A model generated the notes under the pieces. That model was not told the origin of the DNA. It searched no databases and saw only the letters and a list, made by a program, of their open reading frames with translations. The position numbers were made by a program, and so were the translations under genes. 64,000 nucleotides of DNA from Escherichia coli O157:H7 (lineage in GTDB: Bacteria > Pseudomonadota > Gammaproteobacteria > Enterobacterales > Enterobacteriaceae), in NCBI RefSeq assembly GCF_013167455.1, contig NZ_CP038328.1. One strand, 5' to 3'. Shown one piece after another: positions 55,596-60,079 of this stretch. Each line of letters starts with the position of its first letter. The first letter of the stretch is position 1.

Positions 55596-55611
55596 ACTTT
55601 CATTCGAAAGT
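55596..55611. promoter_or_regulatory. Palindromic motif ACTTTCATTCGAAAGT in the fsaA/pflE divergent region (copy 1 of 3)
   Basis: 16-bp near-palindrome ~34 bp upstream of the pflE start; closely similar copies at 59043-59057 and 60063-60079. Confidence 0.4.
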
Positions 55612-55644
55612 ATTTTAATATTTGAACGAAACAGAGAGGCAACT

Positions 55645-56544
55645 ATGATTTTCAATATTCAGCGCTACTCGACCCATGATGGCCCCGGTATCCGCACGGT
55701 CGTATTTCTTAAAGGCTGTTCGCTGGGCTGCCGCTGGTGTCAGAACCCGGAAAGCCGCGCCCGCACGCAGGATCTGCTGTATGACCCACGTCTGTGCCTG
55801 GAAGGCTGTGAGCTGTGCGCTAAGACCGCGCCGGAAGTGATTGAGCGCGCGCTGAATGGTTTGCTTATTCATCGGGAAAAGTTAACCCCGGAGCATCTGA
55901 CGGCGTTAACCGACTGCTGCCCGACACAGTCGTTAACCGTGTGTGGGGAAGTGAAAAGCGTTGAGGAGATCATGGTGACCGTTCTGCGCGATAAACCGTT
56001 TTACGATCGCAGCGGCGGCGGCTTAACACTTTCTGGCGGTGAACCATTCATGCAGCCGGAAATGGCGACGGCGCTACTGCAAGCCAGCCACGAGGCCGGC
56101 ATTCATACTGCGGTAGAAACCTGCCTGCATGTGCCGTGGAAATATATCGCCCCTTCTCTGCCCTATATCGATCTGTTTCTTGCCGATTTAAAACACGTTG
56201 CCGACGCGCCGTTTAAACAGTGGACCGACGGTAACGCCGCCAGGGTGCTGGATAACCTGAAAAAACTCGCCGCAGCGGGCAAAAAAATCATTATCCGCGT
56301 GCCGCTGATTCAAGGCTTTAATGCCGACGAAACCTCTGTGAAAGCCATTACCGATTTTGCCGCCGACGAGCTGCACGTTGGCGAAATTCATTTCCTGCCC
56401 TACCACACGCTGGGCATCAACAAATATCACTTACTTAATCTGCCCTATGACGCCCCGGAAAAACCGCTTGATGCGCCAGAACTGCTCGACTTTGCCCAGC
56501 AGTATGCCTGCCAGAAAGGGTTAACCGCGACCTTACGAGGATAA
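55645..56544 (+). CDS. pflE: Glycyl-radical enzyme activating protein (radical SAM)
   Basis: 299-aa ORF with CxxxCxxC (CSLGCRWC) near the N-terminus and additional Cys clusters; immediately upstream of the glycyl-radical enzyme gene. Confidence 0.88.
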
Positions 56545-56549
56545 CAACC

Positions 56550-58981
56550 ATGACCACACTGAAACTGGACACGCTCAGCGACCGCATTAAAGCGCACAAA
56601 AATGCGCTGGTGCATATTGTGAAACCGCCGGTTTGTACCGAGCGCGCGCAGCACTATACCGAGATGTATCAACAACATCTCGATAAGCCGATCCCTGTAC
56701 GTCGCGCGCTGGCGCTGGCACATCACCTGGCGAATCGCACTATCTGGATCAAGCACGATGAGTTGATCATCGGCAACCAGGCAAGCGAAGTTCGCGCCGC
56801 GCCGATCTTCCCGGAATATACTGTCTCGTGGATCGAAAAAGAGATTGATGATCTGGCAGATCGTCCCGGTGCTGGCTTTGCGGTGAGCGAAGAGAACAAA
56901 CGCGTTCTGCATGAAGTGTGCCCGTGGTGGCGCGGTCAGACGGTACAGGATCGCTGCTACGGCATGTTTACCGATGAGCAAAAAGGTCTGCTGGCGACCG
57001 GAATCATTAAAGCGGAAGGCAATATGACCTCCGGCGATGCGCACCTGGCGGTGAATTTCCCGCTGCTGCTGGAAAAAGGCTTGATGGTCTGCGCGAGAAA
57101 GTAGCGGAACGTCGCTCGCGCATCAATCTGACGGTACTGGAAGATCTGCACGGCGAACAGTTCCTGAAAGCGATTGATATCGTGCTGGTGGCAGTCAGTG
57201 AACACATTGAACGTTTCGCTGCCCTGGCGCGTGCAATGGCCGCGACCGAAACCCGCGAAAGCCGTCGCGATGAACTGCTGGCGATGGCAGAAAACTGCGA
57301 TCTTATCGCCCACCAGCCGCCGCAGACTTTCTGGCAGGCGCTGCAACTGTGTTACTTCATCCAGTTGATTTTGCAGATCGAATCTAACGGTCACTCAGTA
57401 TCGTTTGGTCGTATGGACCAGTATCTCTACCCGTACTATCGCCGCGACGTTGAACTCAACCAGACACTGGATCGCGAACACGCCATCGAATTGCTGCATA
57501 GCTGCTGGCTGAAACTGCTGGAAGTGAACAAAATCCGCTCAGGCTCACACTCAAAAGCCTCTGCGGGAAGTCCTCTGTATCAGAACGTCACCATTGGCGG
57601 ACAAAATCTGGTTGATGGTCAACCAATGGACGCGGTGAATCCACTCTCTTACGCGATCCTCGAATCCTGCGGTCGCCTGCGTTCCACTCAGCCTAACCTC
57701 AGCGTGCGTTACCACGCGGGAATGAGCAACGATTTCCTCGACGCCTGCGTACAGGTGATCCGTTGCGGCTTCGGGATGCCGGCGTTCAACAACGACGAAA
57801 TCGTCATCCCGGAATTTATTAAACTCGGTATTGAACCGCAGGATGCTTACAACTATGCAGCGATTGGTTGTATCGAAACCGCCGTCGGTGGCAAATGGGG
57901 CTATCGCTGTACCGGCATGAGCTTTATCAACTTCGCCCGCGTGATGCTGGCGGCGCTGGAAGGCGGGCGTGATGCCACCAGCGGCAAAGTGTTCCTGCCA
58001 CAAGAAAAAGCGTTGTCGGCAGGTAACTTCAACAACTTCGATGAAGTGATGGACGCGTGGGATACGCAAATCCGTTACTACACGCGTAAATCAATCGAAA
58101 TCGAATATGTCGTCGACACCATGCAGGAAGAGAACGTGCACGATATTCTCTGCTCGGCGCTGGTGGATGACTGTATTGAGCGAGCGAAAAGTATCAAGCA
58201 AGGCGGCGCGAAATATGACTGGGTTTCTGGCCTGCAGGTTGGCATTGCCAACCTCGGCAACAGCCTGGCGGCCGTGAAGAAACTGGTATTTGAACAGGGC
58301 GCGATTAGTCAGCAACAGCTGGCTGCCGCACTGGCGAATGACTTCGACGGCCTGACTCACGAGCAGCTGCGTCAGCGGCTGATTAACGGTGCGCCGAAGT
58401 ACGGCAACGACGATGATACTGTCGATACGCTGCTGGCTCGCGCTTATCAGACCTATATCGACGAACTGAAACAGTACCATAACCCGCGCTACGGTCGTGG
58501 TCCGGTTGGCGGCAACTATTACGCGGGTACGTCGTCTATCTCCGCTAACGTACCGTTTGGCGCGCAAACTATGGCAACGCCAGACGGACGTAAAGCCCAC
58601 ACCCCGCTGGCAGAAGGCGCAAGCCCGGCTTCCGGTACTGATCATCTTGGCCCTACTGCGGTCATTGGCTCGGTGGGTAAACTGCCTACGGCAGCGATTC
58701 TCGGCGGGGTGTTGCTCAACCAGAAACTGAATCCAGCAACACTGGAGAACGAATCTGACAAGCAGAAACTGATGATCCTGCTGCGCACCTTCTTTGAAGT
58801 GCATAAAGGCTGGCATATTCAGTACAACATCGTTTCCCGCGAAACGCTGCTGGAGGCGAAAAAACATCCCGATCAGTATCGCGATCTGGTAGTGCGTGTC
58901 GCGGGTTATTCCGCCTTCTTCACCGCGCTCTCTCCAGACGCTCAGGACGATATCATCGCCCGTACCGAACATATGCTGTAA
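56550..58981 (+). pseudogene. pflF: Pyruvate formate-lyase-like glycyl-radical enzyme (YbiW/PflF) with an apparent 1-nt frameshift
   Basis: N-terminal 184-aa ORF (…FPLLLEKGLMVCARK-stop) and C-terminal 599-aa ORF in another frame; reading the second frame upstream gives DGLREKVAERRSRINLTVLEDLHGEQFLKAID…, contiguous with the domain, consistent with loss of one G in ttgGatgg near 57090. C-terminal glycyl-radical motif RVAGYSA present. Confidence 0.65.
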
Positions 58982-58988
58982 TCCCCTC

Positions 58989-59014
58989 AGCCCGGCGGAG
59001 ACGTCGCCGGGCTA
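58989..59014 (+). terminator. Hairpin after pflF
   Basis: agcccggcg-gagacg-tcgccgggct stem-loop just after the stop; no strong T-tract. Confidence 0.4.
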
Positions 59015-59042
59015 AATCATTCACATCATCAATTTCATCCTT

Positions 59043-59057
59043 ACTTTCATTCGAAAT
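59043..59057. promoter_or_regulatory. Palindromic motif ACTTTCATTCGAAAT upstream of ybiV (copy 2 of 3)
   Basis: Same core as 55596-55611, ~70 bp upstream of the ybiV start. Confidence 0.4.
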
Positions 59058-59126
59058 ATAATTTGTGCTCTGCGTCACATTGTTATTACACTGTTACGGT
59101 TTCATTTTCGAGCCGGGAGCACACCT

Positions 59127-59942
59127 ATGAGCGTAAAAGTTATCGTCACAGATATGGACGGTACTTTTCTTAACGACGTCAAAACGTACAACCAACCACG
59201 TTTTATGGCGCAATATCAGGAACTGAAAAAGCGCGGCATTGAGTTCGTTGTCGCCAGCGGTAATCAGTATTACCAGCTTATTTCATTCTTTCCTGAGCTA
59301 AAGGATGAGATCTCTTTTGTCGCGGAAAACGGCGCACTGGTTTACGAACATGGCAAGCAACTGTTCCACGGCGAACTGACCCGACATGAATCGCGGATTG
59401 TTATTGGCGAGTTGCTAAAAGATAAGCAACTCAATTTTGTCGCCTGCGGTCTGCAAAGTGCATATGTCAGCGAAAATGCCCCCGAAGCATTTGTCGCACT
59501 GATGGCAAAACACTACCATCGCCTGAAACCTGTAAAAGATTATCAGGAGATTGACGACGTACTGTTCAAGTTTTCACTCAACCTGCCGGATGAACAAATC
59601 CCGTTAGTGATCGACAAACTGCACATAGCGCTCGATGGCATTATGAAACCCGTCACCAGTGGTTTTGGCTTTATCGACCTGATTATTCCCGGTCTACATA
59701 AAGCAAACGGTATTTCGCGGTTACTGAAACGCTGGGATCTGTCACCGCAAAATGTGGTAGCGATTGGCGACAGCGGTAACGATGCGGAGATGCTGAAAAT
59801 GGCGCGTTATTCCTTTGCGATGGGCAATGCTGCGGAAAACATTAAACAAATCGCCCGTTACGCTACCGATGATAATAATCATGAAGGCGCGCTGAATGTG
59901 ATTCAGGCTGTACTGGATAACACATCCCCTTTTAACAGCTGA
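59127..59942 (+). CDS. ybiV: HAD-superfamily Cof-type sugar phosphatase YbiV
   Basis: 271-aa ORF with HAD motifs (TDMDGT, GDSGND); paralogue of YbjI. Confidence 0.88.
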
Positions 59943-59949
59943 CCTCTCT

Positions 59950-59975
59950 ACCGGAGCCATGCGCTCCGGTTATCC
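59950..59975 (+). terminator. Rho-independent terminator after ybiV
   Basis: accggagc-catgc-gctccggt hairpin followed by a T-rich tract. Confidence 0.6.
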
Positions 59976-60062
59976 CTTCTTTTTACATCCTGTACATCAC
60001 ATCAAATCATTAAACTTGCATTAACTTATTTATAACTTATATTGTCACATGCAAATCAGTAT

Positions 60063-60079
60063 AGTTTCGAATGAAAGTT
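60063..60079. promoter_or_regulatory. Palindromic motif AGTTTCGAATGAAAGTT upstream of ybiU (copy 3 of 3, inverted)
   Basis: Reverse complement (AACTTTCATTCGAAACT) matches copies 1 and 2; sits 10-25 bp upstream of the ybiU start, adjacent to the RBS. Confidence 0.4.

Follow-up and report, generated by a model that had tools for sequence, protein, structure and literature searches.

Gene organization and a repeated palindrome in the ybi cluster

The ybi cluster in the window (the whole 64-kb stretch of E. coli O157:H7 DNA analysed here) comprises fsaA, the divergently transcribed regulated operon ybiYW, and the regulated genes ybiV and ybiU (Table 1); a preliminary description of this DNA had given the same gene context (fsaA, pflEF, ybiV, ybiU), and the annotation agrees. 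The window contains exactly three copies of a 14-mer core, ACTTTCATTCGAAA, at 55596, 59043 and, in inverted orientation, 60065; the 64 kb hold no further site at up to two mismatches. These copies, referred to here as operators Y, V and U, are spaced 3.4 kb and 1.0 kb apart. They are the three closely similar near-palindromes of the preliminary description, whose coordinates proved right to the base. Simple arithmetic over both strands (128 kb) gives about 5e-4 expected exact matches to the 14-mer versus three observed, and thus the three exact copies are not due to chance. A shuffle control with a mean of 0.72 counts matches with up to two mismatches and so understates the rarity of exact copies. 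When positions were scored on the palindrome, 26 of the approximately 64,000 in the window (4e-4) reached at least 9/12, and scores of 11–12/12 were confined to operators Y and U. The copies are alike over 20–22 nt only, after which similarity ends, indicating that they do not belong to a longer repeated element. Inspection of the K-12 promoters had been proposed, and the same three exact cores are present in MG1655, where the operators lie at 859077-859092, 860097-860112 and 863545-863560 of NC_000913.3.

Table 1. Genes, operators and neighboring elements of the ybi cluster, in window coordinates. ΔyciT values are log2 RNA-seq changes from PMC8464067, Dataset S6.
Feature	Position	Strand	Description	ΔyciT
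fsa (fsaA)	54852-55514	-	Annotated gene	+1.8
FNR-like box	55578-55591		TTGAC-gcac-ATCAA; 9/10 to TTGAT-N4-ATCAA; 4 bp upstream of operator Y	
Operator Y	55596-55611	+	ACTTTCATTCGAAAGT, copy before ybiY, between divergent fsaA and ybiY; ACTTTC-ATTC-GAAAGT, a perfect 6-N4-6 inverted repeat	
TTTAAT hexamer	55614-55619	+	Predicted -10 of ybiYp, from conservation	
ybiYW	55645-58981	+	Regulated operon	
ybiY/pflE	55645-56544	+	Glycyl-radical activase (annotation)	+7.7
ybiW/pflF	56550-58981	+	Glycyl-radical enzyme, frameshifted in the O157:H7 genome	+3.5
Operator V	59043-59058	+	ACTTTCATTCGAAATA, copy before ybiV; ACTTTC-ATTC-GAAATA, right arm weaker; 76 bp before ybiV ATG	
CRP-like palindrome	59064-59079		Putative; TGTGC-tctgcg-TCACA; 9/10 to TGTGA-N6-TCACA; 6 bp downstream of operator V	
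ybiV	59127-59942	+	Sugar phosphatase (annotation); regulated gene	+2.2
ybiU promoter-like block	60016-60043	+	TTGCAT-16 bp-TATATT; conserved block cTTgcatTaActTatTTTTaActTaaA.T	
Operator U	60063-60078		AGTTTCGAATGAAAGT, reverse complement of ACTTTCATTCGAAACT, copy before ybiU; AGTTTC-GAAT-GAAAGT, in the opposite orientation to Y and V	
ybiU	60094-61359	+	DUF1479 protein (annotation); regulated gene	+7.0

Promoter context of the three operators

Consensus scans for promoters and terminators returned nothing useful at the three sites; the promoter elements described here were identified by manual reading of the sequence and by conservation, and the start sites are predicted. Measured from its center, operator Y precedes the ATG of ybiY by 41.5 bp and that of fsaA by 89 bp. 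The adjacent TTTAAT is likely the -10 hexamer of ybiYp, with a predicted start site near 55626. Given this start, the FNR-like box would be centered at -41.5 and operator Y would span about -30 to -15. Judged from its sequence, this box probably serves the ybiYW promoter as the site of its anaerobic activator; a literature search turned up no paper linking FNR to ybiY, ybiW or fsaA. Operator V comes after the terminator hairpin of ybiW and shares bases with a TATAAT hexamer (59057-59062). Operator U ends 15 bp before the ybiU ATG, immediately upstream of the GAGG ribosome-binding site. The promoter-like block of ybiU was not called by a simple consensus scan; if used, it would start transcription near 60050 and place operator U at about +14 to +29.

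FNR sites (N4 spacer) and CRP sites (N6 spacer) are also palindromes for dimeric regulators, but the ybi motif matches neither, falling below 8/10 to both TTGAT-N4-ATCAA and TGTGA-N6-TCACA, as the preliminary description had held. The FNR-like and CRP-like boxes are separate elements that adjoin copies of the motif. Between 54000 and 62000 only position 55578 reaches 9/10 for FNR and only position 59064 reaches 9/10 for CRP. That description had overlooked these conserved boxes beside two of the copies.

Conservation in Enterobacteriaceae

The element is found at the same three orthologous positions in 80 other species of Enterobacteriaceae with diverged flanking sequence. Counts per position are about 70–80 species, and these include members of Citrobacter, Enterobacter, Klebsiella, Raoultella, Kluyvera, Kosakonia and other genera. 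In 1.2 Mb there is a single site outside the ybi cluster with up to two mismatches (L015, position 302). The 16-mer of operator Y is unchanged in 64 of 72 species, and the neighboring TTTAAT hexamer is conserved across species. Operator V keeps CTTTC-N4-GAAAT in about 70 species with ATTC (34), GAAT (26) or ATAT (6) at the center; the center thus flips between ATTC and GAAT across species while the arms hold, as would be anticipated of a site that a dimer reads symmetrically. Of 81 loci, 80 retain operator U, and its orientation does not vary. With its offset constant at 20 bp, the FNR-like box reaches 8/10 or better in 70 of 72 species (4% of background 55-bp stretches), and the CRP-like box does so in 70 of 70 at an offset of 18–19 bp (1.9% of background stretches).

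Evidence for recognition by YciT

Several lines of evidence connect the motif to YciT (DeoT, b1284), a DeoR family protein with ChIP-exo peaks in the ybi cluster (Gao et al. 2021, NAR 49:9696, PMC8464067). YciT has HTH_DeoR and DeoRC domains, and 5421 of 5426 complete E. coli genomes carry its gene (at least 95% identity). Published RNA-seq of the ΔyciT strain shows increased expression of ybiY, ybiU, ybiW, ybiV and fsaA (Table 1), and this cluster supplies the three largest increases in Dataset S6 (PMC8464067). The five derepressed genes are exactly those flanked by the three motif copies, and the size of derepression broadly tracks the presence and quality of the motif.

The published cluster peaks have signal-to-noise values of 45 (fsaA/ybiY) and 24 (ybiV/ybiU; labelled ybiV) (PMC8464067, Dataset S4). 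To read the sequence under YciT peaks, coordinates were converted from NC_000913.2 to NC_000913.3 and the K-12 sequence was taken. A TTTC-N4/5-GAAA palindrome is present in all 11 of the non-ybi YciT peaks examined, mostly within a few bp of the peak center, and the probability of finding it by chance in the first nine is about 5e-15. Examples are dmsA ACTTTCGAGTGAAAAT, rdcA GTTTTCATTTGAAAGG, yjjI/deoC GCATTCATTTGAAAGT, pdeR GTTTTCAAACGAAAGT and yfcV ACTTTCCGAATGAAAGT, and the palindromes of these other peaks closely resemble ACTTTC-N4-GAAAGT. The pdeR site lies under a peak labelled gmr, near yciT, that maps upstream of pdeR; an autoregulatory site at yciT itself was sought in the 10 kb around the gene, with no match at up to three mismatches.

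Independent evidence comes from a Reg-Seq preprint (10.1101/2025.05.13.653802) in which DNA chromatography combined with mass spectrometry, using a ybiYp bait, enriched YciT. The YciT site defined in that study overlaps the RNA polymerase footprint and the ChIP-exo call is about 100 bases away (10.1101/2025.05.13.653802), the same offset that we compute for operator Y. The preprint further reports anaerobic activation and, immediately upstream of the site for YciT, an activator that it does not name, and states that RegulonDB has YciT as an activator of ybiY (10.1101/2025.05.13.653802).

In the cluster the published peaks lie off the operators: one falls within the 5′ end of fsaA, about 110 bp from Y, and the other within the 3′ end of ybiV, about 165 bp from U. 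The published list (Dataset S4) has no ChIP-exo peak for operator V. The two displaced peaks are without the motif, whereas each other peak checked sits on its motif. Motif-free signals at 110–165 bp from perfect motifs are what would be anticipated if the palindrome were the site of another transcription factor and YciT acted via nearby sequences at the displaced positions. We regard this alternative as very improbable, because eleven other YciT peaks are centered on or contain the same palindrome, because Reg-Seq and mass spectrometry place YciT at the core ybiY promoter where operator Y lies, and because derepression broadly follows motif presence and quality. We therefore assign the three copies as YciT (DeoT) operators with high confidence, the link to the exact 16-mers being made through the peak sequences read here. 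The proposal in the preliminary description of an operator for a dimeric factor that co-regulates fsaA, pflEF, ybiV and ybiU is thereby borne out by the ΔyciT RNA-seq, the peak motifs and the ybiYp pull-down.

Regulatory model and alternative roles of the motif

In the model we favor, YciT, which is encoded elsewhere on the chromosome, would recognize (A)CTTTC-N4-GAAAG(T) as a dimer or higher oligomer, a stoichiometry that we infer. At ybiYW/fsaA the operator is situated between the FNR-like box and the likely -10, and bound YciT would block both RNA polymerase and FNR-dependent activation. At ybiV the operator appears to abut or overlap promoter elements, and at ybiU it would be located just downstream of the likely start site and beside the ribosome-binding site. 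Binding of YciT would hold the five genes off until relieved, presumably by a pathway-related sugar-phosphate effector, which is the common arrangement among DeoR family members. That pathway consists of anaerobic glycyl-radical cleavage of 1,5-anhydrohexitol-6-phosphate by YbiW followed by the aldolase FsaA and the phosphatase YbiV.

The location of the ybiU copy had also raised the option that it works at the RNA level, as a 5′-UTR hairpin that affects translation or stability instead of or beside its role as an operator. With a start site near 60050 the element would be transcribed, and CUUUC-GAAU-GAAAG could pair as a 4–5-bp hairpin located 6 nt upstream of GAGG. However, its predicted fold energy is no better than that of shuffled sequences (z = +0.64; 147 of 200 shuffles at least as good), it belongs to no Rfam family (the sole Rfam match is a sub-threshold chance match to U6), and the invariance of the arms leaves no covariation to use. 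Moreover, the two other copies are at positions that are not UTR-like, and ybiU mRNA itself is increased about 130-fold in ΔyciT. An RNA-level function thus appears highly unlikely, and the option does not stand against repression by YciT at the DNA level. Chance matches or remnants of a short repeat or mobile element, for which there is nothing to cite but the mere existence of repeats, can be dismissed given the excess of exact 14-mers, the end of similarity after 20–22 nt, the orthologous intergenic positions held in about 80 species with diverged flanks, and the single other site in 1.2 Mb. In particular, an origin as a repeat element or mobile remnant is refuted by the pattern of conservation, in which positions are fixed and no repeat unit longer than the motif is present.

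Relation to the YciT regulon and implications

The motif is real and deeply conserved, yet its regulator is already described, and so the finding is correct and largely known. The genes, the regulator and the direction of regulation are those of the YciT regulon of E. coli K-12, of which the window contains the O157:H7 copy of the locus, and both a palindromic YciT motif and binding at the ybiY promoter are already in print. The motif ties a former y-gene cluster to a dedicated repressor, a link likewise in the literature, and the cluster is now associated with gut-relevant anaerobic catabolism of 1,5-anhydroglucitol and 1,5-anhydromannitol. Neither the 16-mers and their cross-genus conservation nor the FNR-like and CRP-like boxes are set out in the YciT papers (Gao et al. 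2021 and the Reg-Seq preprint). The present analysis adds base-pair assignments that correct the published peak positions, with three operators in place of two listed cluster sites that are 110–165 bp off; it adds the third operator, at ybiV, a three-operator layout conserved across Enterobacteriaceae, and FNR as a concrete candidate for the anaerobic activator detected by Reg-Seq. These additions should ease experiments on the effector and promoter logic, and leave the general understanding of such systems unchanged.

Gao et al. 2021 proposed a role for YciT in osmolarity, whereas the operators described here flag a dedicated sugar-catabolic regulon. We tentatively raise the possibility that YciT is a pathway-specific sensor of anaerobic radical glycolysis for 1,5-anhydrohexitols rather than an osmolarity regulator, and that the operators form a logic gate, conserved across Enterobacteriaceae, together with a class-II FNR site at ybiYW and the CRP-like site at ybiV. 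If so, opening of the gate would require anaerobiosis, the lack of a preferred sugar and the presence of an inducer, for example 1,5-anhydroglucitol-6-phosphate or 1-deoxyfructose-6-phosphate. Looping in the manner of DeoR might also let the operators cooperate, which could account for the displaced ChIP-exo signals as well.

Comparison with other DeoR family systems

GlpR and AgaR are DeoR family repressors of sugar-phosphate catabolic operons that are released by a phosphorylated pathway intermediate, with operators that overlap elements of the core promoter and in many cases adjoin CRP sites. The YciT operators share with them the association with sugar-phosphate catabolism, the overlap with core promoters and the neighboring CRP or CRP-like sites. 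The CTTTC-containing repeats of AgaR presumably also resemble the ybi motif. The DeoR operators of the deo operon are a 16-bp palindrome (TGTTAGAA·TTCTAACA), and the three of them, O1, O2 and OE, are bound by a DeoR oligomer that loops cooperatively. The two systems thus have in common the protein family, a 16-bp inverted repeat, and three operators at kilobase distances in one cluster. The half-site sequence differs, however, and each ybi operator is at its own promoter; looping and oligomerization of YciT are conjecture. The YciT ChIP-exo peak in the yjjI/deoC regulatory region may indicate cross-talk with deo.

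YciT and the ybi operators

Near-palindromes of about 16 bp precede ybiY (operator Y, in the region divergent from fsaA), ybiV (operator V) and ybiU (operator U), and their sequences and positions are confirmed as initially described. The 64-kb window holds exactly three instances of the 14-nt core, ACTTTCATTCGAAA, and no further site at two or fewer mismatches; E. coli K-12 MG1655 carries the identical three exact cores. Measured from its center, operator Y precedes the ybiY ATG by 41.5 bp and that of the divergent fsaA by 89 bp; operator V likewise precedes the ybiV ATG by 76 bp, and operator U the ybiU ATG by 23 bp.

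YciT (synonym DeoT, b1284), for which a named "YciT" iModulon exists, carries HTH_DeoR and DeoRC domains and is encoded in 5421 of 5426 complete E. coli genomes. It represses five genes and is found at the ybi cluster. In ΔyciT the log2 changes are +7.7 for ybiY, +7.0 for ybiU, +3.5 for ybiW, +2.2 for ybiV and +1.8 for fsaA; these are exactly the genes flanking the motif and include the three largest increases tabulated (Gao et al. 2021, PMC8464067, Dataset S6). The same study lists 49 YciT ChIP-exo peaks, two of them in the ybi cluster with S/N of 45.4 and 24.0 (Dataset S4). Peak coordinates were moved from NC_000913.2 to NC_000913.3, and K-12 sequence inspected under 11 further, non-cluster peaks contains the palindrome in every case, mostly no more than a few bp from the peak center. 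Only 4e-4 of positions in the 64-kb window score at least 9/12 against ACTTTC-N4-GAAAGT, and the probability that the first nine peaks would all contain the motif by chance is about 5e-15. Judged by the sequence under these peaks, YciT recognizes this motif. That another factor binds it is unlikely, given both this peak-sequence test and the capture of YciT on ybiY-promoter bait by DNA chromatography and mass spectrometry (2025-26 Reg-Seq preprint, 10.1101/2025.05.13.653802). Together with derepression of the flanked genes and the reversible center described below, the peak sequences support the proposal in the preliminary description that a dimeric factor co-regulates fsaA, pflEF (ybiYW), ybiV and ybiU. 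At yfcV, the strongest peak of the data set (S/N 69), and at ompX and potF the TTTC and GAAA arms are separated by 5 nt, so spacer length seems flexible. Peaks with good motifs also occur in the regulatory region of the deo operon and upstream of both pdeR and dmsABC, an anaerobic operon, which may point to a broader connection with anaerobic or nucleoside metabolism, or to DeoR cross-talk.

The motif is absent under both published ybi-cluster peaks, which lie about 110 bp from operator Y and about 165 bp from operator U, and operator V is without a peak in the published list. In the Reg-Seq preprint the YciT site overlaps the RNA polymerase footprint, and the ChIP-exo call is described as "about 100 bases" off, which is the offset calculated here for operator Y. 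Coordinate conversion is rejected as the source of error, since the ybiO, ompX, potF and dmsA peaks on either side sit on motifs; the displacement may be an artefact of peak calling where sites are very strong, or may reflect a larger complex. Both the role of YciT and the extent of its regulon were in the literature beforehand; the additions here are the exact operator assignments including the third site, their Enterobacteriaceae-wide conservation, and the neighboring FNR-like and CRP-like boxes.

Positions of genes, operators, predicted promoter elements and YciT peak sequences (genes from annotation and ORFs; K-12 positions refer to NC_000913.3; L numbers denote fetched loci with their own coordinates)
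Feature	Position	Strand	Sequence or remark
fsa	54852-55514	-	
Cluster peak 1	roughly 55479-55506 (K-12 about 863650-863677)		inside fsaA 5′ end
FNR-like box	55578-55591		TTGACgcacATCAA; 9/10 to FNR consensus; 4 bp upstream of operator Y
Operator Y	55596-55611		ACTTTCATTCGAAAGT
Putative ybiYW -10	55614-55619		TTTAAT; conserved
ybiY	55645-56544	+	
ybiW	56550-58981	+	frameshifted pseudogene in O157; ORFs 56550-57104 and 57182-58981
Operator V	59043-59058		ACTTTCATTCGAAATA
CRP-like palindrome	59064-59079		TGTGCtctgcgTCACA; 6 bp downstream of operator V
ybiV	59127-59942	+	
Cluster peak 2	roughly 59890-59923 (K-12 about 859232-859265)		inside ybiV 3′ end
Inverted repeat	60015-60027, 60075-60087		CTTGCATTAACTT / AAGTTAATGCGAG
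Putative ybiU promoter block	60016-60043		TTGCAT-16-TA(T/A)A(N)T; conserved
Conserved block	60043-60055		TATCAC.TGTAA; TTGTCACATGCAA in E. coli
Operator U	60063-60078		AGTTTCGAATGAAAGT; inverted copy, reverse complement ACTTTCATTCGAAACT
ybiU	60094-61359	+	
dmsA peak	L091 318-333		ACTTTCGAGTGAAAAT; dmsA upstream
rdcA peak			GTTTTCATTTGAAAGG
yjiT peak			ATTTTCATTTGAAATT
yjjI/deoC peak	L088 656-671		GCATTCATTTGAAAGT; K-12 intergenic
pdeR peak	L003 6879-6894		GTTTTCAAACGAAAGT; pdeR upstream
sixA peak			TCTTTCATCTGAAACC
ybiO peak			CCTTTCGGGTGAAAGG
yhgE peak			TATTTCGTTCGGAAGT
yfcV peak	L084 690-706		ACTTTCCGAATGAAAGT; 5-nt spacer
potF peak	L090 365-381		ACTTTCAGAAGGAAAGA; 5-nt spacer
ompX peak	L087 about 6019-6035		GGTTTCGGGTCGAAAAT; 5-nt spacer

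Probable promoter geometry

Terminators (hairpin and T-run, read by eye) follow ybiW and ybiV, so the three plus-strand units probably have their own promoters. The TTTAAT hexamer is likely the ybiYW -10, which would place the start near 55626, the FNR-like box center at -41.5 and operator Y at about -30 to -15, where bound YciT would block polymerase. The -41.5 position is canonical for class II activation. Of 72 Enterobacteriaceae species, 70 have the box with a score of at least 8/10, always at the same offset. Its position fits two observations of the Reg-Seq preprint, activation under anaerobic conditions and an unnamed activator whose site lies about 15 bp upstream of that for YciT; the box is a candidate for that activator's site. 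FNR is mentioned nowhere in the preprint, and a literature search found no paper tying it to these ybi-cluster genes.

Operator V overlaps a TATAAT hexamer, and the CRP-like palindrome beyond it scores at least 8/10 in 70 of 70 species, followed in most other species by a TAGAAT hexamer. That the right arm (GAAATA) is the weaker one, and that ybiV is derepressed modestly, fits a weaker site.

The ybiU promoter block suggests a start near 60050; operator U would then lie at about +14 to +29, and YciT there would act as a promoter-proximal block. Repression is strong, as the 130-fold derepression of ybiU in ΔyciT indicates, and by analogy with DeoR looping operator U may cooperate with operator V, 1.0 kb away. 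The suggestion that the copy beside the ybiU ribosome-binding site acts at the RNA level is not supported: its fold z is +0.64, no Rfam family matched, its arms are invariant and hence without covariation, and the ΔyciT effect on ybiU is at transcript level. Downstream of the putative ybiU -10, and ahead of operator U, lies a block conserved across genera. A 13-nt inverted repeat, 92% complementary, pairs the putative -35 region with a stretch spanning the ribosome-binding site; it is probably fortuitous, because the downstream arm is unconserved beyond the Escherichia/Citrobacter group.

Conservation across Enterobacteriaceae

Via YbiU (81-96% identity), 80 loci from different Enterobacteriaceae species were fetched, including Citrobacter, Enterobacter, Lelliottia, Kluyvera, Kosakonia, Klebsiella, Raoultella, Trabulsiella, Yokenella, Phytobacter and others, and sites were stacked on the 12-mer TTTC-N4-GAAA. 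The core (two or fewer mismatches) is present in nearly all loci at three orthologous places, with a single off-cluster site in 1.2 Mb (L015, position 302). For operator Y, 64 of 72 species share the exact sequence, and its orientation is fixed. Operator U has the consensus cTTTCGAATGAAAG(a/t), and 80 of 81 loci agree in its orientation. At operator V the arms CTTTC...GAAAT are retained around a variable central tetramer: 34 species have ATTC, 26 have GAAT and 6 have ATAT. Symmetric recognition by a dimer predicts this combination of constant arms and a reversible center. Farther out, conservation drops to none except in specific FNR-like, CRP-like and promoter-like blocks. An origin by chance or as repeat-element remnants, either of which would have undone the operator reading, is excluded by the three exact cores against about 5e-4 expected by arithmetic, by a resemblance that stops after 20-22 nt and so does not belong to a longer repeat, and by this conservation pattern.

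Candidate effectors and gene context

Release by a phosphorylated sugar is the norm among DeoR-family repressors. According to a 2025 review citing Ma et al. 2024, the glycyl-radical enzymes YbiW and PflD cleave 1,5-anhydroglucitol-6-P and 1,5-anhydromannitol-6-P to 1-deoxyfructose-6-P, so by family analogy these compounds would be the obvious candidates for the YciT effector. E. coli O157:H7 chromosomes match the window at 100% identity. In this lineage ybiW, the glycyl-radical enzyme gene of the cluster, is annotated as disrupted, and iaaA, upstream of the region, has an internal stop; the operators and the other genes are intact. A 7-kb cluster query is found at 80% or more in one piece in only 4330 of 5426 E. 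coli genomes.
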